DNA of 64,000 nt from contig JAKQKX010000045.1 in NCBI GenBank assembly GCA_029560465.1, positions 152,260 through 216,259 on the forward strand, read 5' to 3'. Source of the stretch: Candidatus Omnitrophota bacterium (lineage in GTDB: Bacteria; Omnitrophota; Gorgyraeia; Zapsychrales; JANLHA01). A program made the translations under genes and the position numbers. Positions 6,979 to 60,585 of this stretch are shown here, one piece after another; the first letter of the stretch is position 1; the number at the start of each line of letters is the position of its first letter. Under the pieces are notes generated by a model that saw only the letters and a list, made by a program, of their open reading frames with translations, searched no databases and was not told the origin of the DNA.

Positions 6979-7631
6979 GCTTTGCCCCCCCGATTATTCA
7001 GGGCATTAACAAAATACAACAGGAATTCCAGTTCAACCCCTAAATTCACGTCATGGATAACGCATGACCGTTGAGCCATAAGATGAACCGGGGCAAAATT
7101 CAACACGCCTTCAACCCCTCCCCGGACCATAACGTCCAAAACCAGTTGTGCCGCGTCAGCCGGAACCGCAAGGATGCCCACTTTAATATTGCGGTTGGAA
7201 ATATAGCCCTCGCATTCTGAGAATGGATAAACCGGGATATTCCCCTGAACACCGCATTTCACGGGATCAATGTCAAACCCCGCTCTTATACAGATCCCCT
7301 CTTTTTCAAACCCTTTATAATTGCTGAGGGCAATCCCCAAGTGTCCCATGCCGGCTATTATAACATCCTGACCGGGTTGGGAACCGAGAATTCTCTGAAT
7401 TATACCCAAAAGATCAGAGACACTATAACCGCCTCTTTTGTTCCCCATGATGCCAAATAACGAAAAATCCTTCCGCACTTGCGCGGCCGTAATCCCGATC
7501 GCGTCTGCCAGTTCATTAGAGTAAACCCGGTCAGAACCGGAAGCTAAAACTTTCTTAAGCACATATTTATATTGCACCAACCGAGGGATACTATTTTTAT
7601 TAACTCCTGCGATCTTCTGAGGCAAATTCAT
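6975..7631 (-). CDS. rex: Redox-sensing transcriptional repressor Rex (NADH/NAD+ sensor)
   Basis: Winged-helix N-terminus with AAQVRKDFSLFG, a Rossmann fold GMGHLGIAL, and C-terminal LNFAPV...VELEFLLYF. Collinear with the B. subtilis/Thermus Rex family. It is the first gene of the hydrogenase transcription unit. Confidence 0.85.
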   Translation of the reverse strand: MNLPQKIAGVNKNSIPRLVQYKYVLKKVLASGSDRVYSNELADAIGITAAQVRKDFSLFGIMGNKRGGYSVSDLLGIIQRILGSQPGQDVIIAGMGHLGIALSNYKGFEKEGICIRAGFDIDPVKCGVQGNIPVYPFSECEGYISNRNIKVGILAVPADAAQLVLDVMVRGGVEGVLNFAPVHLMAQRSCVIHDVNLGVELEFLLYFVNALNNRGGKA

Positions 7632-7646
7632 TTTCTTGGCCCCTTT

Positions 7647-7664
7647 TTGTGAAAACTATCACAT
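7647..7664. promoter_or_regulatory. Candidate Rex operator (ROP) TTGTGAAAACTATCACAT in the rex 5' leader
   Basis: Matches the Rex consensus TTGTGAA-n4-TTCACAA at 12 of 14 specified positions. It lies 16 bp upstream of the rex ATG (7631), between the upstream terminator and the rex RBS AAGGGG. Confidence 0.45.
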
Positions 7665-7704
7665 AAAAAGAAAAAAAAGAAACCGATTTATGACATATCG
7701 GTTT
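7665..7704 (-). terminator. Rho-independent terminator of the upstream PAS-LuxR gene (hairpin flanked by T-runs on both strands)
   Basis: Perfect 8-bp inverted repeat AAACCGAT-n9-ATCGGTTT (7680-7704). On the minus strand it is followed by TCTTTTTTTTCTTTTT, and on the plus strand by TTTTTAT. Confidence 0.6.
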
Positions 7705-7804
7705 TTATGCCAAATAAAAATTGATAATATGATATCTTATTTTCTAATTATTGCAACAGATTTTAATCAGTAATATTTCGGTTATAAAATATACCTGAAA
7801 CGTC

Positions 7805-8725
7805 TCACAACCGTTGCAAAAACGACGTTAAATTAATTTTTTGATGGGACAGACCCAGCTTGCGCCGGATATTTTTCCGGTGCATTTCTATGGTGTTAAA
7901 CGACAGTCCCAACAACCCGGCCATTTCTTTCCCGCTCAAGCCGCTTTTAATCATATGACAAATCTCAATTTCCCGGGTCGTCAACCCATATCCAGGACAG
8001 GACAATTTCCTGCCAAAAGCCGACGTCATCTGTTCAAGAGCTTGCTGAAGAAGAATAAGATTTTTTTCTGATTTATTTTTGAGTTTTATCTTTTTAACCA
8101 TGGGTAATAAAACATGCTGGACATTCCCCATCACGTTTTCCTGGATCTTTCTTTTTTCCGTCTCGACCTGTTCCAGGATATCCTGCAAATCCACGTTCTT
8201 CTGTTCCAAAGCCGCCTTCTGCTTCCCAAGGCGCTGTTCCGACTCTTTTAACGCCGCTTCCACCTTTTTAATATCTGTGACATCCCGGATAATTTCAATC
8301 GCCCCGACAACCTGTCCACCGGGGTCACGCAAAAGACTGGCTCGTCCCCAAATGAACACGTTTTTCCCCTTCAGGCGGGCAGTCGTGGTCTCCGCTTCCA
8401 GGGCGTCTATCGTCTTCTTCGTAATCCGATAACGCTGCGCAACTTCTTCTTGCCCCTCCAGGAGAAGATCAATGAGAATCGGGCGGCGCTGGCCGTAGAA
8501 AGGAAGCGCGTATTCATAGCGCCCTTTCCCCAGGATCGCTGCCCGGGGCACCCCGGTTAACCGTTCCATTTCCCGATTCCAGGCGACCACGATTTTCTCC
8601 CGGTCAATAACAAAACAGGAATCCGGAAGACAATCCACAAAATTAGAGAATGGCCCGGAAAAATCCTGAAAGGCTTCCGGACACGGGGACTTCCGTTTCG
8701 ACTTTTTAAGCATCGGCTTAAGCAT
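7805..8725 (-). CDS. PAS-domain / coiled-coil / LuxR-type HTH transcriptional regulator
   Basis: N-terminal PAS-like region, central coiled coil (EAALKESEQRLGKQKAALEQKNVDLQDILEQ) and a C-terminal GerE/LuxR HTH (LTTREIEICHMIKSGLSGKEMAGLLGLSFNTIEMHRKNIRRKLG). Confidence 0.8.
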   Translation of the reverse strand: MLKPMLKKSKRKSPCPEAFQDFSGPFSNFVDCLPDSCFVIDREKIVVAWNREMERLTGVPRAAILGKGRYEYALPFYGQRRPILIDLLLEGQEEVAQRYRITKKTIDALEAETTTARLKGKNVFIWGRASLLRDPGGQVVGAIEIIRDVTDIKKVEAALKESEQRLGKQKAALEQKNVDLQDILEQVETEKRKIQENVMGNVQHVLLPMVKKIKLKNKSEKNLILLQQALEQMTSAFGRKLSCPGYGLTTREIEICHMIKSGLSGKEMAGLLGLSFNTIEMHRKNIRRKLGLSHQKINLTSFLQRL

Positions 8726-8743
8726 GCGCGTTTATCTTACCGC

Positions 8744-9751
8744 TTACGGCAAGGCGGTTTTGTGAGAATCTTGAATATTATATAAAGCGTTAAAAAGCAA
8801 GACATCAACATATGTCTGCAATAACGCCTGGGCGGTTTCGTCCTCCAGCAGGCCCTTCGCCTTATCACGATAATATTGGCGGATATCCTGGAATGAAGCC
8901 CCTCCGCCAGAGGGGAAAGCCTCCTGTATTCGGCTCATATCGTCTTTGAGCTGATGAAGTGTCCCTTGGGGGATGCCCATCGGCTCGCAATAAATTTCAA
9001 CCCAACGAAAATACTCCGCCAAAGGCTGCCGCACGCCTTCAGTATCCCCCTCTTTAATCGCCCGGAGGATCCTTTCGCTTAAAACAAACGCGTGCCCCTG
9101 GTAGCCTGTCTTGACCATGTCTTCGTAGGTTTCCTGTTCCCCGGGAGACATCCCCTCTCCCTTGCGCAATAACTGCAGCCCCTGATAAAACTCCCCTTTC
9201 TGCATCAAATCTGACGATTCTTTGAAAGCCTGCGCGTAGGGGCTGCTGTCTGCTCGGGACATGTCCCGGAGCCTGCCAAGCTGAGTGAGTCCAGTCACCT
9301 TTGTCATCGTCAGCCAGTTAAAAACCCCGACCACAACCGCCAAAGACACCATCATAGGGAACCCGAGCCGCCGGGTCGCGGCGGGATGCCATAGGACGTG
9401 TTTCATCCGCATCCCCTCCAATATTTTTTTATGAATGGTGTAGATTTTAAAAAACACAAAAATATTCAAGCCCGGGAAAAACATCAACACCGTCCATAGA
9501 CCCGGCGACAGCGCCGTGTTCCCGCTCTTGTAAAAACCGGCGGTCAACTGATGGGCATAGAAAAGCAGGTTGAAAAGGATGAACACAAAAAATACGGCGA
9601 CAACCGGGCGTTCCGATGGGCTGAACCCCCGCACGATGGAAAAAATCACGAGTCCCGCGGCAAAGACAGCATATAAAAAAAAGGCTTTAAGGAAATCCCC
9701 CCATATTTTAATATAATTATCTTTATCAAACGTCGTGGTATTATTGATCAT
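8744..9751 (-). CDS. Hypothetical membrane protein (about 4 N-terminal TM helices plus a ~200-aa soluble domain)
   Basis: Long ORF with consistent codon usage and hydrophobic N-terminal segments. The 19-bp gap to the PAS-LuxR gene suggests co-transcription. No motif recognised. Confidence 0.55.
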   Translation of the reverse strand: MINNTTTFDKDNYIKIWGDFLKAFFLYAVFAAGLVIFSIVRGFSPSERPVVAVFFVFILFNLLFYAHQLTAGFYKSGNTALSPGLWTVLMFFPGLNIFVFFKIYTIHKKILEGMRMKHVLWHPAATRRLGFPMMVSLAVVVGVFNWLTMTKVTGLTQLGRLRDMSRADSSPYAQAFKESSDLMQKGEFYQGLQLLRKGEGMSPGEQETYEDMVKTGYQGHAFVLSERILRAIKEGDTEGVRQPLAEYFRWVEIYCEPMGIPQGTLHQLKDDMSRIQEAFPSGGGASFQDIRQYYRDKAKGLLEDETAQALLQTYVDVLLFNALYNIQDSHKTALP

Positions 9752-9847
9752 ACCCCCTCATTTCATGACCCGCCTCACCATGCCCGTTCCCCATGTTTCA
9801 TGCCGGATTATGGAATTCCCAGGACCCGCGGACACACAACGCCCGGC

Positions 9848-11332
9848 TTATCTTTCCATAATCCAAATCACCGGAAAAACCCGCCCCCGGCCTTTTGATG
9901 AATAATACCTCATACGGCCCGAAGCCGCAACCTCACGAAACCCCTCTTGCTTGAGAAAACGCAGCAAAGACGGGTCATACGGGTCCACAAGCAGATTATC
10001 AGGCCGGCCCCAATTATCCAAAACAACCATCATGGAGCCGTGATGGGTTCCCATCAACGCATCGCGGGCTTCCTCCTGCAACGGCCAGTGTATAATTTGC
10101 CCCCCAAAATCCTTAAATTCAATCCCGGTATAATACCGCACCAAATCCGGCGAGCTGGCGACAATAAGGGTGTCTGGGGTCGCGGCCTTTTTTATCTCCT
10201 GCGCCGCAGCCTGAAACCCGACATAAAAATGGGTCTCCTCCTCCAACATAGATGCCAGTTCAGGATAAGCGAAAACAGCAAAAGCGCAAACATATAAAAC
10301 AACCATCACATTGGCCAGCCGCTTTCCTTCCTGGGAACGGAAAATGCTTCGCGCGCCTTGGTACATCCCGAAAGACAATAAAATGAGAAGCGCGGGAAGA
10401 TAAACCATGCTATACCGGCTGGTTTTCTCGGCGGCCAAGGAAAAAATGGCGGCGAAAACAAGAACCCACAGAACCAAAAGCAAACAAGCCCTCCTGTCCT
10501 TTTTCCATGAAAAAAAAACGCCGGCAGCGCAGAAGAACAAGGCAAAAGGGAAATCCAACAACAGCGGGAGGTCCAGCCCATAGAACCAGGCCGAAGAATT
10601 CCCGGATGTATTAATAACAACCGCAGACACGTTCCCCCAGGCCCGCCCTAATTGAATATAATTATTGATAAGCAGCCCCATCACAACGGCGAGAATGATT
10701 CCAAGGGGGAGGAAAACTTTTTGAAGCCGCTGTTTGATTCCCAACGCATCAAAACCCGCCAGGTAAAAAATAAAGATAACCGGGATAACCAACAACGCCG
10801 ACCACTTCAGGAGAATAGCCACGCACCCGGCGAGCCCGACCCTAAACCCGGAACAGGGGTCCGCCGACCGGCTCGCCCGGATAAGTTCGAAAGCCAGCCA
10901 CATCATAACGGTCATCAGCAACCCATCAATGAGAATTTTTGGTGAAAACTTAACATAAACACTATTGGTGGCCAGCAGGACCGCGCTTAAGAATCCCACG
11001 ACGGCATTAAACAGTTTCTTCCCAAGAGCATAAATCATCCCGATTCCGGACAAACTGATCAGGACGGCCATCAAACGGCAGCCAGCGAGCGACCGCCCGA
11101 AAACAGCCAAAAAAACTGAAAATAACGGCGGATGGGTGTTTATGATTCCCCTCGAAAAAAGGATGGAAGGGTTTTCCGCAATACGCTGCGCGTACCAGGC
11201 GTACTCGGCTTCGTCGGCCCACAAGCGTTCCGCGAATCCGTACCTCATCCTTAACTGCAGCGACATCAATAAAATCCCGGCCAGCAAAAAAAGCAGGACC
11301 GACTCCCTGAACGCAACATTGAATAATTTCAT
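9848..11332 (-). CDS. GT-C fold glycosyltransferase, ArnT/PMT family (COG1807-like)
   Basis: ~12 TM helices with the first-loop acidic motif RLWADEAEYAWYAQRI (the DE motif of PMT/ArnT) and a C-terminal soluble domain. Confidence 0.7.
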   Translation of the reverse strand: MKLFNVAFRESVLLFLLAGILLMSLQLRMRYGFAERLWADEAEYAWYAQRIAENPSILFSRGIINTHPPLFSVFLAVFGRSLAGCRLMAVLISLSGIGMIYALGKKLFNAVVGFLSAVLLATNSVYVKFSPKILIDGLLMTVMMWLAFELIRASRSADPCSGFRVGLAGCVAILLKWSALLVIPVIFIFYLAGFDALGIKQRLQKVFLPLGIILAVVMGLLINNYIQLGRAWGNVSAVVINTSGNSSAWFYGLDLPLLLDFPFALFFCAAGVFFSWKKDRRACLLLVLWVLVFAAIFSLAAEKTSRYSMVYLPALLILLSFGMYQGARSIFRSQEGKRLANVMVVLYVCAFAVFAYPELASMLEEETHFYVGFQAAAQEIKKAATPDTLIVASSPDLVRYYTGIEFKDFGGQIIHWPLQEEARDALMGTHHGSMMVVLDNWGRPDNLLVDPYDPSLLRFLKQEGFREVAASGRMRYYSSKGRGRVFPVIWIMER

Positions 11333-28349: not shown

Positions 28350-28556
28350 CTACCTTGTTGTTTGTATTGTTGAGCCGTCGTCTCTCGCGACTTCACCAAA
28401 ATGAGTCAGTGATAAAAGTAGTAATCCCATGAATAAAAAACAAAGCAAGCCAATCACTAAAAGGGCTACAGATAATTTTTTATTCTTTTTTATAAGAAAA
28501 AATGCGCATCCCGCCGCGGCAAATACAATTCCAAGAAGGCCGATAATTATTATCAT
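28350..28556 (-). CDS. Possible small membrane protein (68 aa, 2 TM)
   Basis: Two hydrophobic helices separated by KKNKK. It lies in the island between the IS remnants. Weak. Confidence 0.25.
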   Translation of the reverse strand: MIIIIGLLGIVFAAAGCAFFLIKKNKKLSVALLVIGLLCFLFMGLLLLSLTHFGEVARDDGSTIQTTR

Positions 28557-28683
28557 ATTGTGCTTCTCCTATAACGCCGCAAAGAACAAGCCGAGCCGAG
28601 ATGCTATGCAAAAAACGAGCAAGCCCCCTCGCGGTCTTGTTAATTTGTTTGCTGGCCCTTTCCGCTTCATATGTTATCCACAT

Positions 28684-29121
28684 TCAATAAAGAATGTTAT
28701 CAAAACTGAATGGCTTCGTGCGATAGGTATCCCAAATTTTCGCCGCTTCCTCTTCTGCCCACGCTTCAAAGCCGAGTTTCTTCATCATACACAGTTGGTA
28801 CATTTTCATATTGTGTGGAAAATGTGCTTGATCAGCATAAGGCTGAAAGCGCTCGCATGGGAAATTATCACACTCGTGACAAAAATCGATGCCCTTTTCC
28901 CCGGTGCAGAGGAATATCTCACACGTCTTCTCCGGGTTCAAGAAAGGGATATTGCCTTTCTGAAGGCGGCATCCCTCGCATGTGGCTTTTTCCGGTGGGA
29001 TACCAAGGGCCGTCACCAATTTCTGTAAAATATCAGGATTCTCCTTGGCGAGATAGGCCGGACAGTGAAAACACGGCAATCCGCATGGAGATGTCATTGT
29101 TTTTGCTTTATCCTTGTCCAT
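28684..29121 (-). CDS. Cys-rich DUF3795-family protein
   Basis: The Cys pattern CGLPCFHCPAY...CEGCRLQKG...CEIFLC...FCHECDNFPC matches DUF3795. Confidence 0.55.
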   Translation of the reverse strand: MDKDKAKTMTSPCGLPCFHCPAYLAKENPDILQKLVTALGIPPEKATCEGCRLQKGNIPFLNPEKTCEIFLCTGEKGIDFCHECDNFPCERFQPYADQAHFPHNMKMYQLCMMKKLGFEAWAEEEAAKIWDTYRTKPFSFDNILY

Positions 29122-29328
29122 GGGTATTCCTTCTTTGTTAAGTGTTTAATCCGGGAATCTTAATGATATTTCAGGTCAACATTAAGCTCAGCGCCGGCTG
29201 TAAGACGCCCGTTGGATTTTCTTGTTGGGTCAAGAGGAGTTTTACAAAAACTGGATTAACAAAGAACTCGATCTACACAAAAAAATTCTTGCTTAGCTAG
29301 GGTCATTACAAATTCCTTGGACCATTTA

Positions 29329-29496
29329 TACCGCAATGCCTTCCTTGCGGCAAATCTCCGATATCGGAACATTTCCCCGAAGCCCTTCTAACACAATACG
29401 AATCTTTTCATCCGGCGTGAACTTACGGCGGGTTGCCCTGCGGATTTCTTTAACAACATCTTTCGGCTTGTTCACGGCCTCATTATGGAGCTGAAA
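29329..29496 (-). pseudogene. N-terminal HTH fragment of an IS3-family transposase OrfA, with no start codon and truncated
   Basis: Reads ...RRKFTPDEKIRIVLEGLRGNVPISEICRKEGIAV*. Compare IS3/IS407-group OrfA: F(S/T).E.KI.I(V/L)RE.EAG..V.ELCRKHGIS. It is bounded by an upstream in-frame TGA and has no ATG. Confidence 0.5.
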
Positions 29497-29608
29497 TCAG
29501 GGTTTCTCAACCCTTAAAACTCTCTCTTAATTCAAGACTCCAATCTGTCTCACTTTTGCTGACGAGGAACAGTATTGAACTTCAATAAGTAGCGAGTCCT
29601 TAAAAATT

Positions 29609-29625
29609 TTGGTGGAGGTGCGGGG
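29609..29625. repeat. Exact 17-bp direct repeat of the ssrA 3' end (TGGTGGAGGTGCGGGGA): a putative distal att site of a 1.43-kb islet
   Basis: Identical to 31039-31055, with similar upstream flanks (AAAATTTTGGTGG vs TTTAAAATGGTGG). Confidence 0.6.
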
Positions 29626-29785
29626 ATACAATTAGAGAAGCAGAAAGAGTCCGTTTATTTTCAATGGGTTACATCAAATATCGTCGATAATGATCCCCCA
29701 AATAATTTCCATACGTTATACAACTTTATACAATTTTTTCCTACGTTTTCACTTTCGATGGGCACTTATTGGGCACCAAAGATAT

Positions 29786-30193
29786 CTATTCCAAAAGATA
29801 TCTTTCTTGAATTTCACTCAAATCATTTCCTGCTTTGCCAGTTTTAGTTTGTATATGACGAACAATTGTATCAAAACGAATTTTTGCATTTAAGCGTTCT
29901 TCTAAAGTCTTACGTCTAAAATTCCTCCGTTTCTCTCTATTAAACAAATATTTTAGAGGAGTAATAAGTACGATTCCTCTATTATCAATCTTTTCGTATA
30001 AATCTATTTTGTAATTTTTCGTAAAAACAACAATTAAATATTCAATATATAATGACATTGCATTAACAACACTGGCTACCTGCTTAAATTTAAAGTATTC
30101 AACATCACTCCATCTGACAGTATGCATTGAAGTCTTAATGCAATCGGCATAAACAAATCCATCTCCAAATTTTAAACCACTACTAGATGTCAT
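29786..30193 (-). CDS. Hypothetical protein (135 aa), AT-rich islet cargo
   Basis: ORF in a ~35 % GC segment, codirectional with and 104 bp downstream of 30298..30846. No recognisable motif. Confidence 0.5.
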   Translation of the reverse strand: MTSSSGLKFGDGFVYADCIKTSMHTVRWSDVEYFKFKQVASVVNAMSLYIEYLIVVFTKNYKIDLYEKIDNRGIVLITPLKYLFNREKRRNFRRKTLEERLNAKIRFDTIVRHIQTKTGKAGNDLSEIQERYLLE

Positions 30194-30297
30194 CTGTTTT
30201 CTTTAGCCTCCAAGATATAACAATACCCAAAGATCCTCGGCAATAGTAAGGCTGTGAATTATGCCATACGAGACTTGCGACTATTTTTTAAATCATA

Positions 30298-30846
30298 CTA
30301 GTCCTTATTTTTTACTAAGTCGACAATCACCCCGCCCTTTTCCTCAAAGCAATCTATTCTAATTGGCATTAATGCACCATTTGCCACATAATCTTTAATA
30401 AAACCTGATTTCTCTTTAGGCAAACTATATGCAGAGATGAGCGGGGTCAACCCGGTCTTTTCTGAAAGAGTTTCGACATGATCCGGGGCATCCCGCCGGG
30501 AGACCCTGATAAAGTTTCCTCTCTTATCTTGAAACAAAAGATAGTCATCAGCATTTGCATGAAAAACCCCGCTATGATTACACGGTCTCAGCACTCTCTC
30601 CACAACAACCTCCGTCCCCTTTGCTATTGAGAAATCATTGTAAACCAAATCCATCTGCAAAGTTGAACCCGTTCCTGCACATACGCCAATAAAGGGAAAT
30701 TCCATCGCCTCAAGACCTAGAAGAGAAATAAACGGTTCTTTAGATTCAGCGTACAAATACCTACCACCTATACCGACTTCACGCAGAATATTTTTATAGA
30801 CCTTCTCATATTCGGGCTTTGAAGTATATTTTAATTTTCTCGTCAT
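30298..30846 (-). CDS. Hypothetical protein (~182 aa from ATG 30846), AT-rich islet cargo
   Basis: ATG at 30846 is preceded by AAGGTG-n7. The listed ORF begins at a TTG at 30870 inside the terminator hairpin. No recognisable motif. Confidence 0.5.
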   Translation of the reverse strand: MTRKLKYTSKPEYEKVYKNILREVGIGGRYLYAESKEPFISLLGLEAMEFPFIGVCAGTGSTLQMDLVYNDFSIAKGTEVVVERVLRPCNHSGVFHANADDYLLFQDKRGNFIRVSRRDAPDHVETLSEKTGLTPLISAYSLPKEKSGFIKDYVANGALMPIRIDCFEEKGGVIVDLVKNKD

Positions 30847-30861
30847 TTTTGAGCACCTTAA

Positions 30862-30895
30862 AAAAGGCAACTCCTAAAAACGGGAGTTGCCTTAA
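30862..30895 (-). terminator. Strong hairpin (11-bp perfect stem AAGGCAACTCC / GGAGTTGCCTT) followed by TTTTT on the minus strand, located between ssrA and the islet cargo genes
   Basis: Perfect inverted repeat at 30865-30875 / 30883-30893 with T-run on the minus strand. It separates ssrA from the cargo operon. Confidence 0.5.
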
Positions 30896-31038
30896 AATTA
30901 CAAAATTAATTGTTCCAATATTTCCTCATTTTTTCATTCTCTCAGCACGGGCACCTTTTGGGCACCACTACATCAAGGAAATAGCAACACTTCTGTAAGT
31001 TGCTGTCAATTTTTATATTTACAACACTAAGATTTAAA

Positions 31039-31427
31039 ATGGTGGAGGTGCGGGGAATCGAACCCCGGTCCTTCAGTTGCTTCCCATAAGCCTCTACATG
31101 CGTAGTTTGTCTTTAAGTGTCGCCTGAAACCACCCGGCAAACAGGGCTGTTTCAGGCCATCCTCCTTAAATTTCGCCGCCGCCCCGAAGGCGCTGGCCGC
31201 GGCTAGCCTGCTGAATGTCCTCTTATAAACCCACAGGCCTGGCTAATAAGAGGGCTTTACTTTTTTATTAAGCAAAGACTGGTTGGGCTTCGGCTAAAAT
31301 AGCCTCTGCCTCGGCAACAACACTGTAAGTGCCATTTGTTTTGTGCCCGGATGATTAACGAGGCCAACCTGGCGTCCTCGGCATGCCACCTATGGTCTCT
31401 CAACTTAAGTCGAGACCAATCACCCCC
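31039..31427 (-). ncRNA. ssrA: tmRNA (SsrA)
   Basis: The minus strand reads 5' GGGGGUGAUUGGUCUCGACUU... and ends ...GGACCGGGGUUCGAUUCCCCGCACCUCCACCA (tRNA-Ala-like T-arm/acceptor plus CCA). The internal reading frame ...AEAEAILAEAQPVFA ends with tandem UAA UAA. smpB is immediately upstream. Confidence 0.85.
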
Positions 31428-31521: not shown

Positions 31522-31989
31522 CTACCTGGCGCGTTTCACCACCCGCAACGACTGCCTTAAAGACCGCTCAATATCGCGCTTCTTCATCGATTCCCTCTTA
31601 TCATACAATTTCTTCCCGGTCCCCAACGCGAGTTCAATTTTAACTAACCCGCGATTATTCAAATAAATCTTTGTCGGCACCAGAACCTTGCCCCGCTCGG
31701 CCACCTCGGAAACGATCTTGCGGATCTCCCGCTTGTGCATAAGCAGTTTTCTCGCCCGGTCCGGGTCCTCATTCATGTAACTGGCTTCCTTATAAGGATT
31801 GATGTGCAGGTTGTATAAAAACACCTCGCCGTCTTCGATCTTCGCGAAGCTGTCCTTGAAATTCACCAGCCCCGCGCGCACAGCCTTCACTTCCCCGCCT
31901 TTAAGCTCAATCCCGCATTCCCAGTTCTGGCTTAAAAAATAATTATGATACGCTTTTTTATTCGTGGCGACCGGTTTAGACATGATCAA
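31522..31989 (-). CDS. smpB: SsrA-binding protein SmpB
   Basis: KKAYHNYFL...GIELKGGEVK...LLMHKREI...LVP...YL..RG..K.ELALGTGKK are canonical SmpB motifs. Confidence 0.9.
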   Translation of the reverse strand: MIMSKPVATNKKAYHNYFLSQNWECGIELKGGEVKAVRAGLVNFKDSFAKIEDGEVFLYNLHINPYKEASYMNEDPDRARKLLMHKREIRKIVSEVAERGKVLVPTKIYLNNRGLVKIELALGTGKKLYDKRESMKKRDIERSLRQSLRVVKRAR

Positions 31990-52254: not shown

Positions 52255-54183
52255 TTAAAATTTTACGGTCAGTTTAGTATATATCGCCCTGCCTGACTGC
52301 TGTGGAAGTGTCGTTATCATGGTCTTCCTGTTAAACTCGACAAAATCATATTCCTGATCCAACAGATTCTGAACATACACATTCCATTCGAGATCTGCCT
52401 TCACCGGCAATTTATAGGTCATGTTGAAATCAACAAGGTCTACGGTATGGGCACTCGGATTATGGACCGCCGCGCTGTTTGCCCGCGGTTCAGAAAAAAT
52501 CGAGTTAAATAAACCGACATTCAAACCAAAATCCGTCATATAAGACAATCCGAATTTAACCATCAAATCCGGAGAATACATAAGATTGTCTTTCTCATCC
52601 TTATACATAAATGAGCCTAAAGCATATAAATTATCGGCTATATTGACTTTCCCTTCCAATTCGACGCCTTCGATCTCATATCCCCCGCCGTTGGAATAGC
52701 TGGCAGGAAGCGCGGTGGTCCGGGTTATGATATCCGTATATCGGCTTCTAAAGAAAGTGATGCTGGCGTCCACTTTCTGGGCGGTATAAAACAATTGCCA
52801 ATCAACAGTGGCAATTTGTTCCGGTTTCAAGCTGGGATTCCCGACCAAAGAAGAAATGGCCATGTATTGTTCAGCCGGGTACGGGGCCCGATAAGCTTCG
52901 CCATATAAAAGCTTAGTACCAAACTTTTTATCAAAATTATATATCCCACCGACACGGACGATAAATTTACCATCAATGCGGTAAGGTTTTACAAATTGCG
53001 TGCCAGCAATTAATTTCAATTTTTCTAAAGGCTTATAATCCACCTGGGTGTAACCGGTGTAATTCCTCTGAAAGTACGTGTCCGAGAAACTTGACCCGCT
53101 CTCCACTTTTGTTAATGTCCGGTCTTCCACCAACCCCCCGGCGATCAAGTTGACTTTTTCAAACAGCGTCCCCTGGGCGTACGCTTCATAAATCCAATCC
53201 AGGAAATCCTCATTATTTTCAATATTGGTATACGTGCTCCAGGGGTTCGCATTCATCGTCAAGTTCGTGTGCACGGCCCAGTCGTCGGAAATCTTGTGGG
53301 CTAATTCCAAATCATTAAAATATTTTCTGCCGATGGTTTTCCCTGCATGCGTCCAATTCGGCACAATTCCGAAATGTGAAACGCTATAATCACTATAAAA
53401 ACTGTTAAGGATAATATCGGTTTTCCCTTCATTGAAATTATATGAATAGTTACCGAAAACCCCAAAGTTCTCCTCGCTATAATTTGTCGAATTGCTCGCC
53501 CCTGTCAGGTCTTTGGCTTCAAACTTCCAGCCTTTTTCATCAAAATACATGAGCGCGGTGTTCAGCGAAATGTTCTGTTTGTCATACAGCAGATTGACTG
53601 TTTCTCTGGCCGCGCCAAATGACCCGACTCCGGTGCTGGCGGAGAACTCGGTATCCTCTTTGATCTTTTTGGTCACGATATTAATGACGCCGTCGAAGGC
53701 GTTGGTTCCGTAAAGCACCGAGCCCGGGCCGCGGATCACCTCAACACGTTCGATAATATCAATCGGAAAATTCGTGTAGACAGCGAAATTAATTCCGCCC
53801 ATCATCCCGTCCCGTACCGGCCGCCCGTTGATCAATAACAGCACGCGGGTATCTAAATGCTGATCAAGGTCCCCTCTCATGGACGTAAGATTCTGTATCC
53901 AGAGATTTGAACTTAGCATTTGAATACTCGGCGCCCGCTGCAGGATATCAAACAAGGTGTTGGCGCCAAAGTCTTTAATCTCTTTTTCCGTGATTACAGT
54001 CACGACGGCCGGGGAATCTTTAACGGCTTCTTCGCGTTTTGAGGCGCCGACAACGACATTTAAAAGTTCTTCCAAAGATAACTCCAACAGTCCTTCCTGA
54101 GAATGCGCAATGTGCGGCATCATAAACAAAGCCAGCATAAAAACGCATAAAATGCGGTCAATCATCCTGACTCTCATCAACAT
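52255..54183 (-). CDS. TonB-dependent outer-membrane receptor
   Basis: Signal peptide, plug domain motifs (VVTVITEKEI, IEVIRGPGSVLYG), a 22-strand barrel length, and a C-terminal ...YTKLTVKF. Confidence 0.75.
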   Translation of the reverse strand: MLMRVRMIDRILCVFMLALFMMPHIAHSQEGLLELSLEELLNVVVGASKREEAVKDSPAVVTVITEKEIKDFGANTLFDILQRAPSIQMLSSNLWIQNLTSMRGDLDQHLDTRVLLLINGRPVRDGMMGGINFAVYTNFPIDIIERVEVIRGPGSVLYGTNAFDGVINIVTKKIKEDTEFSASTGVGSFGAARETVNLLYDKQNISLNTALMYFDEKGWKFEAKDLTGASNSTNYSEENFGVFGNYSYNFNEGKTDIILNSFYSDYSVSHFGIVPNWTHAGKTIGRKYFNDLELAHKISDDWAVHTNLTMNANPWSTYTNIENNEDFLDWIYEAYAQGTLFEKVNLIAGGLVEDRTLTKVESGSSFSDTYFQRNYTGYTQVDYKPLEKLKLIAGTQFVKPYRIDGKFIVRVGGIYNFDKKFGTKLLYGEAYRAPYPAEQYMAISSLVGNPSLKPEQIATVDWQLFYTAQKVDASITFFRSRYTDIITRTTALPASYSNGGGYEIEGVELEGKVNIADNLYALGSFMYKDEKDNLMYSPDLMVKFGLSYMTDFGLNVGLFNSIFSEPRANSAAVHNPSAHTVDLVDFNMTYKLPVKADLEWNVYVQNLLDQEYDFVEFNRKTMITTLPQQSGRAIYTKLTVKF

Positions 54184-56216: not shown

Positions 56217-57329
56217 ATGCAAATCCTGGACCGCTATATCATTAAATCCGTTATCTTCACCTTTATCGTGACGTTCTTCACGTTCGGGCTGCTCTTTGTG
56301 CTGGTGGATTCCGCCAGCAACCTTGATGAATTCATCGGGCAAAAAGTGTCTGTCCAGGTTCTGTTCCAGTATTATCTGGCTTATCTTCCGGTCGTGCTGG
56401 TTCAAACAACACCCATGGCCCTGTTGATATCGGTGCTGCTGACGTATTCGACCCTGAACGCCCATAACGAAGTGGTTGTGCTGCGGGCCAGTGGGATGAA
56501 TTTCTGGCGGATCACCCGCCCGGCCCTGGGTTTTGTCGCCGTCATGGCCGCCCTGACGTTCTTCATCAACGAGCGGTACATCCCACAGGCGGAGGAAAAA
56601 ACCAAAAAAATCAAGAACGAGAACCTGATCCTGGAAGTGGACCGCAAGAAAAAAAAGCTGGCGGCGATCAAGAACCTCACGTTTTACGGCCTCAAAAACC
56701 GGCTTTATTTTATCGACACGTTTGACCCTAACCCTGACTCATATAATCTGGAAGGGCTGACAGTCATCGAATATGACCAACAGCAAAATATCAAGGAAAA
56801 GCTGGTAGGCTTAAAGGGGACATGGACCGGGATCGCCTGGAAATGCTTCCAATGTCACGTGACGATTTTTCCAACCGACCCGCAAAGCACGATCAAGGTC
56901 AAAGTGTATGAGGAAAAACTGCTCGACATCAAAGAAACCCCGGAAGATTTCCTCAACCAACGGCTCACCGTGACCGCCATGAATATCGGGCAATTGACGG
57001 ACTACGTCGGCCGCTTTGCCAACAGCGGCGCGAAACGGGCGCTCAATAACCTGAAAGTGGACCTCTACCAAAAATATTCCTTTCCCCTGACCAACATCAT
57101 CATCGTTCTGGTCGGCCTCCCCCTCACGCTCAGCACCGGACGGCGCCGCGCCCAAACATTCTCATCGCTCGGGATAGCCATCGGGATTGGATTTCTTTAT
57201 TACGTGACAAACGCGGTGGGCCTGGCTTTAGGGAAAGGGGGAATCTTCCCTCCCGCAATCGCGGCCTGGATGGCCCCGGTGATCTTCACCGGCACCGCCC
57301 TTTACCTCATCAAATACAAATTCCGGTGA
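56217..57329 (+). CDS. lptG: LPS export ABC permease LptG/LptF (YjgP/YjgQ family). The start was moved to MQILDRY at 56217.
   Basis: The N-terminal MQILDRYIIK is typical of LptF/G. The start follows the lptF stop by 2 nt. Confidence 0.75.
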   Translation: MQILDRYIIKSVIFTFIVTFFTFGLLFVLVDSASNLDEFIGQKVSVQVLFQYYLAYLPVVLVQTTPMALLISVLLTYSTLNAHNEVVVLRASGMNFWRITRPALGFVAVMAALTFFINERYIPQAEEKTKKIKNENLILEVDRKKKKLAAIKNLTFYGLKNRLYFIDTFDPNPDSYNLEGLTVIEYDQQQNIKEKLVGLKGTWTGIAWKCFQCHVTIFPTDPQSTIKVKVYEEKLLDIKETPEDFLNQRLTVTAMNIGQLTDYVGRFANSGAKRALNNLKVDLYQKYSFPLTNIIIVLVGLPLTLSTGRRRAQTFSSLGIAIGIGFLYYVTNAVGLALGKGGIFPPAIAAWMAPVIFTGTALYLIKYKFR

Positions 57330-57372
57330 ACATTTCTGCAAACAATCTGGTGGGCACTAATTTAACCTAGCT

Positions 57373-58818
57373 TTACTGTACCTGGACTTTCAACTGTTCC
57401 AAAAAATCCTCAAATTTTTTCCACCAACCCATATCACCGCTTAAATCAAGCATTCTCACAAGCTCTTTATCCTGAAAGATATTCTCACCAATACTTCGTA
57501 ATTCAGGTACTACTTTTTTTATATTTTCTTTAGAAACTTCGTTAGGGATCTTAAATTTACACGGGTCGGGCTCCCATCGCCTTATAATACGCACTGTAAG
57601 GCATAAAAGATATTTCATCTCGTTTTTTTCTTTGTCAAAATATGTGATAAAATCATCGTTAAAGATTCTATGCTCTATGCCAAAAATAAAGCCAAAAAAT
57701 ATAGCGAGAAAATCAAAATTATCTGGGATTATGGGATTTTTAACCGCCTGGCCACTGCTATATCGCAACTCGTCATAATTAAATATACACTCGACAAAAT
57801 CATACTTTTTATTTCTTAAGGCATAGGCCCCAACTGAAAAAATAATTCTTAACAAAGAATTATATCTGTATATTTTAGCAAACTGGGCAGATTCTTTCTT
57901 TATATCCTCTTCAAACTCATTGTCTGCCGGAGCTACATTTCGAATAACAGTAACAATCTTTTGAAAATCGTCATTCCATTGCGCTGACTGTCTTTGCCTA
58001 CACAAATATTTAATATTGTCTTTTAATTTATAATAACTTGCTGAAAACGGCCCCTGTTCTGCCCCTGCCAAAAGTTCCCGATAATCGCTCAGTTCTTTAC
58101 CATAACCAGGATCCTTCTCCTGCCCCAATGTTTCATCAACCGCTATATGTTGAATACATCTTTTAAATTGCTCAATTCGATTTTTATCAACAAGCTGAAT
58201 AAGTGCCACCCCAAAATACCTATTGAATATCGGCAAAAGCTCGAGATTAAACTTCCATTCGGCCTCCTTTCCGTTCTTAACAGATAAAAAAACAGGTTCT
58301 AAATACCAGTCAGTAAGAAGATCATCTGACACAAGAGCACGCATTTTTTCATTCTCGTTAATTCTTATTATCTTTTCTAGCACAAAATTTACAAAAGCTT
58401 CTCTCCGGATTAATTCATCTCTGAGAGTGTACTTAATAATTTCCAACAAAAAGTCACCCCACACCCCCATAATTTCATCACAGATAAATAAATAACCACT
58501 TTCAACCGCAGCCCTACAAATTCTATCTAGTTGTTCAACAGGAACCGCAAATCCATCCAGATATTCTTCTGATCTATGGATTAAACGAAAACCGCGTAGG
58601 GGATCCTTGGCAAGTGTAGCAAATTGAGAAGATGTAACGATATCCTTAAATCTTGCAAAATCTTTCTCATAATATTCAAACATCTTTAAAATTATTTTCT
58701 TGAATTCGCTTAAGTGCCGGGATATAAACTGCCTGTTCCCTTTCTTGGCTTCATAACAAAGGATATTTCCTATCCCTTGAATAGATTGTAAATACCGTTC
58801 TTTTGTTATAGATTTCAT
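57373..58818 (-). CDS. Hypothetical 481-aa protein in an AT-rich (~35 % GC) inserted cassette
   Basis: Long ORF with very different base composition from its flanks. No recognisable catalytic motif. The gap to the upstream 4-TM gene is 2 nt (58819-58820). Confidence 0.6.
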   Translation of the reverse strand: MKSITKERYLQSIQGIGNILCYEAKKGNRQFISRHLSEFKKIILKMFEYYEKDFARFKDIVTSSQFATLAKDPLRGFRLIHRSEEYLDGFAVPVEQLDRICRAAVESGYLFICDEIMGVWGDFLLEIIKYTLRDELIRREAFVNFVLEKIIRINENEKMRALVSDDLLTDWYLEPVFLSVKNGKEAEWKFNLELLPIFNRYFGVALIQLVDKNRIEQFKRCIQHIAVDETLGQEKDPGYGKELSDYRELLAGAEQGPFSASYYKLKDNIKYLCRQRQSAQWNDDFQKIVTVIRNVAPADNEFEEDIKKESAQFAKIYRYNSLLRIIFSVGAYALRNKKYDFVECIFNYDELRYSSGQAVKNPIIPDNFDFLAIFFGFIFGIEHRIFNDDFITYFDKEKNEMKYLLCLTVRIIRRWEPDPCKFKIPNEVSKENIKKVVPELRSIGENIFQDKELVRMLDLSGDMGWWKKFEDFLEQLKVQVQ

Positions 58819-58820
58819 GT

Positions 58821-59312
58821 TTATTTCAAAAATTCATCCAAATCTTTCAACAAATCTTTTATCAGCACTTCTCTGGACACCACATATTTTCTGGCCGTCA
58901 TTAAGAACTGAATGAAAAGCAAAATTACAAAAATAAACGAAAGGAAATCACTCCACAACAAAAGTGTTTGTGTAATATTCAAAGCATCTTCATTTTTTAT
59001 AAAAAAAAGCAGAAGGCAGGAAAAAACAATATGACCTAAAGCTACTGGCGGTAATAACTTAATAAATACTTCTTCACTAAAGCGTTCACCTATTACGTTA
59101 GATTCATATCTATCAGAAATCCTGCTAACGATATCAAGTGTCACCGGATATGCAATGCCCATAATCGCGGCTTCAAAGGCTATAACTGACTGTAAAAAAC
59201 TACTGTTGGGCATAAACCGGCCTAAGTAACAACCAATAGCGAACCCCAGTAAAGACCCGAAAACTATTTCATAATCATCGGGAATAGGACATTTTTTTGA
59301 CATGGGATTCAA
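58821..59312 (-). CDS. Hypothetical 4-TM membrane protein (163 aa), first gene of the AT-rich cassette
   Basis: Four predicted TM helices. AT-rich. It is followed 2 nt later by the start of the 481-aa gene. Confidence 0.55.
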   Translation of the reverse strand: MNPMSKKCPIPDDYEIVFGSLLGFAIGCYLGRFMPNSSFLQSVIAFEAAIMGIAYPVTLDIVSRISDRYESNVIGERFSEEVFIKLLPPVALGHIVFSCLLLFFIKNEDALNITQTLLLWSDFLSFIFVILLFIQFLMTARKYVVSREVLIKDLLKDLDEFLK

Positions 59313-59403
59313 TAATAATTTAATAAGATCACTCGACCGAACTATTAGAAATTAATCTGTATTTTACTCCTTATTATCTTCCAGCTCTATGACAATATCA
59401 CAT

Positions 59404-60585
59404 TTAGCTTTTATACACCCTGGGGAGGCGGCTGCCCAGGCTACAGAGGATTTCGTAATTGATCGTTCCCGCGTACCCGGCCAGCTCATCGGCTGCAATC
59501 TCCTCCTGCTTCTGTTTGCCAAGGATCACCGCCGTCTGCCCGATCTTCACTCCCGGGACGCGGGACACATCCACGACAATCTGATCCATGGTGACCCGCC
59601 CCAGGAGGGGGCAGCGCTGCCCGTTAACAAGGACCGAAGACTTGTTGGACAAACTGCGGAAATAACCGTCGCTGTACCCGATCGGCAGGACCGCGGCCAC
59701 CAGGTCACACGGCGCGACAAACGTGTGCCCGTAACTGATGCCCTGGCCTTTCAAAACCGTCTTGATAAAGATAATCCGCGTTTTCACGCTCATTGCCGGC
59801 TGGAGCTTAACTTTCTGCGCCAGGCGTATATCGGGGTAAAGCCCGTACAGCATGATCCCGGGGCGGACCAGGTTAAAGATCACCGCTTGGTAATCGATCA
59901 GCCCGGCGCTGTTAGCCGCGTGGACATACGGGACCACCAGTCCCTGCCGGTCAAGGGTCTTGACCAATTCATGCATCTGCGTAACTTGCGTGACCGTATA
60001 GTCCGGATTGCTGTCCGCCAGGGGGAAATGGGTGTAAAGCCCTTTGACGGAAAGGTTCTTAAGACGCATCACGTCCTTAATAAAGCCTTCCGCGCCCCGA
60101 TGCCAAACCCCGAGCCGCCCCATGCCGGTATCAACTTTGATATGAACATCAACCGGCCGGCCGATCTTCTTGGCGTAAGTGTTTAAAGACGACGCCAAGG
60201 ACAGCGTGCAAACCGTCGGGATCAGGTTATAATCCACAATATCCTTAACTTGCGAGGGGAGCGAAGTTTCTAAAAGCAGAATTTTCTTCTTGATGCCGTT
60301 TTTCCTTAAAAGGATGCCTTCCGGGATATCGGACACCCCGAAAAATTCCACGCTCATCCGGTTGAGCATTTGTGCCACCTGAATCATGCCGTGGCCGTAG
60401 GCGTCCGCCTTGATCACGGTCAGGACTTCCGGAAACCGCGCGGCCTTCCTCCCTTTGGCGGGATACGGGAGCAGCTCGACTTGCCGCTCCTGGACCATCT
60501 TCCTGATCTGCTGATAATTATTCCGGATGGCTTTCAAGTCCACCTCCACCCAGGACAAATAATGATGCGCTTGACGCAAGCTCAT
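59404..60585 (-). CDS. alr: Alanine racemase
   Basis: PLP-lysine motif VIKADAYGHG and full-length Alr architecture. Confidence 0.9.
   Translation of the reverse strand: MSLRQAHHYLSWVEVDLKAIRNNYQQIRKMVQERQVELLPYPAKGRKAARFPEVLTVIKADAYGHGMIQVAQMLNRMSVEFFGVSDIPEGILLRKNGIKKKILLLETSLPSQVKDIVDYNLIPTVCTLSLASSLNTYAKKIGRPVDVHIKVDTGMGRLGVWHRGAEGFIKDVMRLKNLSVKGLYTHFPLADSNPDYTVTQVTQMHELVKTLDRQGLVVPYVHAANSAGLIDYQAVIFNLVRPGIMLYGLYPDIRLAQKVKLQPAMSVKTRIIFIKTVLKGQGISYGHTFVAPCDLVAAVLPIGYSDGYFRSLSNKSSVLVNGQRCPLLGRVTMDQIVVDVSRVPGVKIGQTAVILGKQKQEEIAADELAGYAGTINYEILCSLGSRLPRVYKS

Follow-up and report, generated by a model that had tools for sequence, protein, structure and literature searches.

The AT-rich insert between alr and lptG

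The 64,000-nucleotide (nt) stretch of a Candidatus Omnitrophota genome analysed here (hereafter the window) carries an AT-rich insert of 2,074 nt at positions 57330..59403, between the genes for alanine racemase (alr) and the lipopolysaccharide (LPS) export permease LptG (lptG). The insert contains two genes, both on the minus strand. The upstream gene (58821..59303, ATG at 59303) encodes a 160-amino acid (aa) protein with four hydrophobic segments, referred to below as the transmembrane (TM) subunit. Its open reading frame (ORF) can be extended to 163 aa from a TTG at 59312 (58821-59312); the 160-aa version is that of the NCBI/ENA gene calls. The downstream gene (57373..58818) encodes a 481-aa protein, predicted from its ORF, an AlphaFold2 model and its coverage by a family profile to be a cytoplasmic, all-alpha solenoid. 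The two genes are separated by only 2 nt (58819..58820, minus strand; TAA AC ATG) and are in different reading frames, a junction that fits translational coupling. An AT-rich leader of 100 nt (59304..59403, minus strand) connects the alr stop codon to the start of the TM gene, while the tail between the stop codon of the 481-aa gene and that of lptG (57330..57372, minus strand) measures 43 nt, too short for a third gene. ORF calls and a hydropathy scan thus agree with the initial annotation of this locus, made from the sequence alone, which described a 4-TM protein and a 481-aa protein with a 2-nt gap. About 7% of codons are expected to be stops at the base composition of the insert; by our own arithmetic, 481 stop-free codons would occur by chance with a probability of about 1e-16, excluding the possibility of a chance ORF.

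The initial annotation also placed a drop in GC content exactly between the stop codons of lptG and alr, and called the composition atypical. Both statements were confirmed. In a 300-nt profile, GC content is 0.30-0.38 across 57400-59349 vs. 0.54-0.59 at 56950-57399 and 59350-59799, with the lptG ORF ending at 57329 and the alr ORF, including its stop codon, starting at 59404. Overall, the insert has a GC content of 0.348 (vs. 0.509 in the rest of the window), and the GC content at third codon positions is 0.32 and 0.33 in its two ORFs compared to 0.66-0.76 in alr, lptF, lptG and tsaB. In a k-mer check based on tetranucleotide profiles, 57501-59500 was the most atypical 2-kb segment of the entire 64 kb (z = 4.5). 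It should be noted that the gene for a TonB-dependent receptor (52255-54183) is also low in GC (0.40-0.47) and that the same low GC is seen in a sister genome (L010, 10445-12388). Low GC alone is therefore no evidence of recent transfer in this genome.

The site is empty in two sister metagenome-assembled genomes (MAGs), L009 and L010, where the spacing between alr and lptG is only about 40 nt (7183-7224 in L010). Both flanking genes are native: alr (59404..60585, minus strand; TIGR00492, E = 9e-110) is 89% identical in L009 and L010, and lptG (56217..57329, plus strand; 370 aa from the gene-caller ATG; TIGR04408, E = 1.4e-65) is conserved in L010 at 7225-8337. The sister genomes also share the synteny of the window on either side (tsaE-tsaB-alr and lptG-lptF-comF-like-TonB receptor, respectively), and homology between window and sister ends at the alr stop codon and restarts at the lptG stop codon. 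The empty sites indicate that the AT-rich stretch is a real insertion. Combined with the atypical composition, they uphold the proposal that the two genes were acquired horizontally, and the acquisition of a 2.07-kb two-gene cassette, which we take to be recent, is well supported. L010 (CAZAXH010000002.1) bears the public label 'uncultured Planctomycetales bacterium' despite its Omnitrophota-like alr (89%) and synteny; the label is probably wrong.

The region was found with the same neighbours, and with 100% identical DNA, on 8 contigs from independent digester-type metagenomes and one MAG; there is no polymorphism among them, and therefore no variation for a test of selection. Within the insert, repeats at the termini, whether inverted or direct, did not exceed chance, and we detected no target duplication, no tRNA, Rfam match or integrase, and no excess of promoter- or terminator-like sites. 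A sigma-70-like match in the leader (59401..59373) is no more than would be expected by chance (5 promoter-like sites vs. 7.4 expected). The two genes, whose neighbours are alr, tsaB and tsaE with thiL, lptF and lptG, are co-directional with and downstream of alr, and convergent on lptG. No terminator-like site was detected after alr, and read-through transcription from alr into the insert genes may be possible.

A family of paired membrane and solenoid proteins

Neither insert protein has a match in Pfam, NCBIfam, PADLOC or PHROGs, apart from a lone noise match to Uperin (E = 0.069). The 481-aa protein has no match among PDB sequences, and each of the two proteins matches only itself in a word-indexed search of 5.8 billion proteins. 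The original statement that the pair could not be matched to a named system therefore stands, the PADLOC search included. An exhaustive phmmer search of 1.84 billion cluster representatives (E <= 1e-3) recovered 83 remote relatives of the 481-aa protein, 28 of them at E <= 1e-10. These are 20-32% identical to the query, with one at 51%, and align over its residues ~5-420. They fall into three size classes. In relatives of about 780 aa, the query covers the first ~420-470 residues; those of about 950 aa have the same organization plus 150-220 N-terminal residues with 3-5 TM segments; the third class measures about 500-640 aa. A profile of the long forms (relatives with an extra C-terminal domain, see below), built without the window protein, nevertheless gives the latter a score of 147 bits (E = 4e-44), with an alignment that spans profile positions 14-498 of 785.

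No member of the family is matched by any model of Pfam, PADLOC (2023 release) or NCBIfam. No relative was found among the 2.9 million viral contigs of IMG/VR or, by tblastn, in 50,697 phage records, and a search of plasmids yielded one long-form copy (Pseudanabaena pPg_05) and none of the window protein. The hosts belong to the Omnitrophota, Nitrospirota, Armatimonadota, Chloroflexota, Gammaproteobacteria and Cyanobacteria, and the proteins are always annotated as 'hypothetical'. Judging from these searches, the insert pair belongs to a rare family without a name, whose members are scattered across six or more phyla. We found no description of a TM-plus-solenoid family in the literature on capsid-fold defence families or on those with TM domains or embedded in restriction-modification (R-M) loci.

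The four predicted TM-length hydrophobic segments of the small protein lie at residues 13-31, 40-58, 84-102 and 113-131 in a hydropathy scan; the same scan gave no convincing TM segment in the 481-aa protein. The N-terminal TM region of the fused relatives is homologous to the window's small protein, and unfused relatives have a 150-180-aa ORF directly upstream, usually overlapping the large gene. All share a conserved motif at TM2 and the following loop, FL..(V/A)AFEA....A.P....I.S.IS(D/E)RY.S.V....F, which the small protein of the window also carries. At every one of the 78 loci that could be assessed, the TM domain was present: 63 have it in an ORF of its own upstream of the large gene, and 15 in a fusion with the large protein. 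Since the TM profile was built from 10 seeds that included the window protein, the score of the latter with this profile follows by construction; homology of the TM domain was seen independently of the profile in L017, L018 and P0087. The constant adjacency or fusion of the TM domain to the large protein indicates that the pair is one conserved two-part module, a conclusion that is well supported and gives substance to the tight coupling suggested in the initial annotation. The existence of fusions further argues for a physical interaction between the two parts.

The closest relative, P0087 (about 46-51% identical), is a fused version of the window's two proteins, in which the gene junction corresponds to an uninterrupted linker within a single ORF of 626 aa. 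The possibility that the window pair is a frameshifted pseudogene of such a fused gene was rejected, since separate overlapping ORFs are the majority arrangement (63/78) and the length of the linker differs from that in the fused relative. The contig encoding P0087 (L013) is AT-rich, and every gene on it is unannotated. Beside P0087 lies a 532-aa ORF (L013, 2040-3638) with an N-terminal D...Q-x-K pattern reminiscent of PD-(D/E)xK nucleases and no match in Pfam or PADLOC.

The AlphaFold2 model of the 481-aa protein, calculated from a 60-sequence alignment, is an all-alpha solenoid of more than 20 helices, with a predicted local distance difference test score (pLDDT) of 85.6 and a predicted TM score (pTM) of 0.89. 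A Foldseek search of the PDB and of viral models returned only generic HEAT/ARM/TPR-type repeats among the matches listed (E >= 0.02, TM score <= 0.24), and a profile search of PDB sequences touched designed helical repeats only. No catalytic or nucleic-acid-binding domain could be recognized in the AlphaFold2 model or by Foldseek. The 481-aa protein had been thought of as the effector of the pair; it is not an evident one, and models instead as a scaffold without an enzymatic domain.

The long forms have an additional C-terminal domain of ~285 aa (e.g. residues 495-779 of P0004; L018, 10001-12340), which was modeled with a pLDDT of 94.4 and a pTM of 0.90. All 50 PDB matches listed by Foldseek for this domain are HK97-fold major capsid proteins or encapsulins, the best being 8em6_A (E = 2e-5, prob 1.0), with TM scores of 0.40-0.48. 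Its sequence has no match in the PDB or in phage genomes and the likeness is at the level of the fold only. The order of its elements (a hairpin, a 24-residue helix, a mixed alpha/beta domain and long C-terminal strands) is one that we take to be that of HK97, according to our own reading of the model rather than a computed topology. The C-terminal domain of the long forms is thus predicted to adopt the HK97 capsid/encapsulin fold, and the two fold predictions, of solenoid and HK97-like domain, are well supported by the models.

The window protein is a short form: the long-form profile covers it only as far as position 498 of 785, and it has no HK97-like domain. The domain is also absent in L101, L102 and L013. 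In L100, a three-gene version of the module (7496-10338) is inserted beside exbB/exbD among housekeeping genes, and consists of a TM gene (7496-8026), a solenoid gene (8001-9542) and a separate HK97-like ORF (9577-10338, E = 7e-76 with a profile of the C-terminal domain). The occurrence of the HK97-like domain as a third gene points to a natural domain boundary. At several loci, the modules are AT-richer than their hosts, with GC contents of 0.30 vs. 0.55 in L014, 0.25 vs. 0.34 in L016, 0.31 vs. 0.50 (flanks) in L100, 0.32 vs. 0.46 in L102 and 0.35 vs. 0.51 in the window. Either selection in favour of low GC or a series of recent transfers, each from an AT-rich donor, could be the cause.

The genomic company of the relatives

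For 68 non-redundant long-form loci, we considered the two genes on either side, 141 neighbours in all; nearly all of the commonest Pfam families in this set are R-M families. The most frequent were N6_Mtase (8), Eco57I (7), HSDR_N_2 (5) and HNH (4), followed by EcoRI_methylase, D12 methyltransferase (MTase) and GmrSD_N (3 each), and by C5 methylase, Methylase_S, N6_N4_Mtase and ResIII (2 each); NgoPII and EcoRV endonucleases were found once each. PADLOC agrees, with labels for specificity subunits and for MTases of types I, II and IIG, and labelled representatives of the loci give the same picture.

The R-M genes are concentrated on one side of the module. Counts by position, obtained by BLAST to Pfam-labelled seeds and therefore a lower bound, gave R-M genes in 9/54 cases at the first upstream position and 8/41 at the second (17-20%), vs. 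1/31 and 3/123 further upstream (2-3%). Downstream, there were none in 127 cases at the three nearest positions and 1/101 beyond. The upstream R-M genes are all on the strand of the module, and in 8 of the 12 cases the gap between them and the module lies between -49 and +23 nt. The module thus typically forms the last cistron or cistrons of an R-M operon. A position at the 3′ end of an R-M operon was seen in at least 15 of the 68 loci; it is frequent, in other words, but not universal. The R-M partners are of different types, including HSDR_N-N6_Mtase proteins with HsdS, an EcoRI-like methylase with GmrSD/HNH, and the TdeIII endonuclease (L021, L022, L025, L030, L035, L040, L068 and others). 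In this respect, the module behaves as a portable 3′ add-on and not as the partner of one type of R-M enzyme.

Elsewhere, the surroundings include PemK, HEPN, integrase, HinfI, an MmeI-like enzyme and ParB-methylases, and the cyanobacterial plasmid copy lies among PIN and RelE genes. Several members are found among metabolic or housekeeping genes (L012, L014, L100 and L101). The survey of neighbourhoods gives a mixed answer to the initial suggestion that such a pair has a context typical of defence systems: the recurrence of R-M genes upstream of the long forms provides real, if indirect, support from the relatives, while the members among housekeeping genes, and the lack of R-M neighbours for the window copy and the short forms, do not fit it.

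A possible defence role and its alternatives

Given the R-M linkage of the relatives, our reading is that the family provides an accessory module directed against phages or mobile DNA. We propose, with a probability of roughly 0.45, that the insert is a divergent, minimal member of this membrane-anchored family and has the same function. The 160-aa 4-TM protein would sit in the inner membrane, with the 481-aa alpha-solenoid docking on its cytoplasmic C-terminal tail. The TM subunit would anchor the complex and probably deliver its output, e.g. by perturbing the membrane, while the binding of proteins, as a membrane-held sensor or scaffold, would fall to the solenoid, together with the HK97-like domain where there is one. 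We infer the defence role in this scheme, as well as its trigger, its output and the continued activity of the short form in the window.

A more elaborate version, which we regard as speculative and rather unlikely, would have the 4-TM subunit tether a solenoid that displays an exapted HK97 mimic. Such a mimic would engage proteins that assemble the phage head, namely the capsid protein, scaffold, portal or prohead protease, as a decoy or poison subunit, and a signal would go either to the membrane subunit or to the restriction enzyme encoded on the same transcript. The window pair would then be reduced to the minimum, with the trigger sensed by the solenoid alone.

Several observations weigh against a defence role for the window copy. 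At the level of the family, the argument is one of guilt by association and rests on the long forms. No R-M or other defence gene adjoins the window copy, and a recognizable R-M gene was seen among the called neighbours of 0/5 short-form loci (the window, L013 and L100-L102). The tight operon link could mean that the module works only as an accessory of an R-M enzyme, of which there is none beside the window copy. The HK97-like domain is absent from a six-frame translation of the 64-kb window and of the 21-kb L001, in a search where the positive control L100 was detected at E ~1e-79. Furthermore, the window protein and P0087 lack two motifs that are conserved in the long forms, W-E-Y-K-Q-P-x-D-S-D and H-H-G-S-E; three other short forms keep them at least in part. 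The missing domain, the lost motifs and the absence of an R-M partner temper the probability of a defence function for this copy.

The same observations can be accounted for by decay, the pair being what is left, truncated and no longer functional, of a long-form system whose HK97-like domain and R-M partner are gone and which simply lingers on in this strain. With the long-form profile, no member scores lower than the window protein (147 bits vs. 316-479 in the other short forms), its copy stands alone in a housekeeping context, and the insert is carried by one strain or population only, given the 100% identity of the DNA in 8 samples. We nonetheless consider decay unlikely. Both ORFs are intact even though some 7% of random codons would be stops, and the TM motif is fully kept in the small protein. 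P0087 has the same domain content in an intact 626-aa ORF at about 50% divergence, implying long-term purifying selection on the short architecture, and other short forms without the domain occur in complete contigs (L101, L102). A different function altogether, in which a membrane-tethered helical scaffold acquired by horizontal gene transfer and expressed from the alr transcript has a niche-specific role in the envelope, in transport or in protein localization, also appears doubtful. It would agree with the location of the insert between genes for peptidoglycan synthesis (alr) and LPS export (lptFG), with its orientation, 100 nt downstream of and co-directional with alr with no terminator detected, with the members found among metabolic or housekeeping genes, and with a solenoid that has no catalytic or nucleic-acid-binding signature. 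However, the insert is absent from two sister species of otherwise identical synteny, no linkage to envelope genes is conserved across loci, where R-M genes are the only recurrent neighbours, and the patchy spread across phyla and AT-richness are typical of selfish or defence cargo.

The HK97-fold domain of the long forms, the serine recombinase or integrase genes near some loci and the copy on a plasmid could also point to structural or assembly genes of a cryptic virus or mobile element. This is improbable, considering that no relative occurs in the viral contigs and phage records searched, that the window copy has neither a capsid-like domain nor a terminase, portal, protease or integrase beside it, and that the insert shows no terminal repeats or target duplication. 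Least probable, to the point where we would be surprised to see it confirmed, is the Kiwa- or Zorya-like logic evoked in the initial annotation, in the sense of a divergent member of either system. Kiwa is a two-gene operon found in defence islands, in which the 4-TM protein KwaA holds the soluble KwaB at the membrane (PMC11785009). In the insert, too, the gene for a small 4-TM protein precedes that for a soluble partner, and of the known systems Kiwa comes closest to it in arrangement and in the membrane-tethered sensing that we propose. The analogy goes no further. PADLOC, whose models include Kiwa and Zorya, gave no match at E <= 1 for either protein or for the relatives, and Pfam detected none of the domains DUF4868, MotA/ExbB and OmpA/MotB. 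While KwaB is a DNA-binding protein of the DUF4868 type, the partner in the insert is a predicted alpha-solenoid of 481 aa with no KwaB chain among the 50 Foldseek PDB matches listed; the relatives of the insert proteins add an HK97-fold domain not present in Kiwa, and the TM subunit has a conserved motif of its own. With Zorya (ZorAB plus the soluble ZorC/D/E), the insert has in common a membrane complex with cytoplasmic components and a long helical cytoplasmic element on a TM subunit. It differs in having no MotA/ExbB-like (ZorA) or OmpA/MotB-like (ZorB) domain, no PADLOC Zor match, two genes instead of four, and no nuclease or helicase partner.

Accessory genes are known from R-M operons, either within them or at their end, examples being the GmrSD/BrxU-type and Abi-type genes of R-M and BREX islands. 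The long forms resemble such genes in their 3′-terminal position in type I/IIG, EcoRI-methylase plus GmrSD-HNH, and TdeIII operons, at a distance of a few nt. They are different in that the family has no nuclease, ATPase or other known defence domain and is membrane-anchored, and in that the window copy is not beside an R-M gene. To our knowledge, encapsulins are the main cellular exaptation of the HK97 fold so far, and the family considered here would be the first case of this fold in a membrane-anchored, R-M-linked cellular protein, i.e. a new use of the fold; we found no account of such a protein in the literature searched. The precedent set by encapsulins is an established one (PMC8987985). 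The ~285-aa domain of the long forms matches the folds of HK97 capsids and encapsulins exclusively among the 50 Foldseek matches listed; however, it is the tail of a membrane-tethered solenoid in R-M operons rather than a stand-alone shell with cargo genes. The window protein itself has no such domain, its model being all-helical with best PDB matches of the HEAT/ARM type (TM score < 0.25).

If the family is a defence module, the anti-phage repertoire would gain a new protein family, one that is not represented by any model of Pfam, NCBIfam, PADLOC or PHROG and has no relative of solved structure. The family also offers a set of constructs that can be tested: the long form, the three-gene split form and the short form. 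The locus would document the landing of a defence-type islet precisely in a convergent intergenic spacer of a genome from the Omnitrophota, a phylum with, as far as we know, almost no experimental genetics. The element in the window is a reduced variant and is of interest mainly as an entry point to the family. Even if it were no more than a decaying remnant, it would still show cleanly how an exhaustive profile search can resolve a pair of apparent ORFans.

Elsewhere in the window, at 28500-31427, the tmRNA gene (31040-31427, minus strand), which adjoins smpB (31522-31989), is directly followed on its 3′ side by a second segment of AT-rich and k-mer-atypical DNA (GC 0.38-0.40, z about 3.1). 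This segment contains two small unannotated ORFs of 135 aa (29786-30193) and 190 aa (30298-30870), and resembles a further islet at ssrA, a classical integration hotspot.

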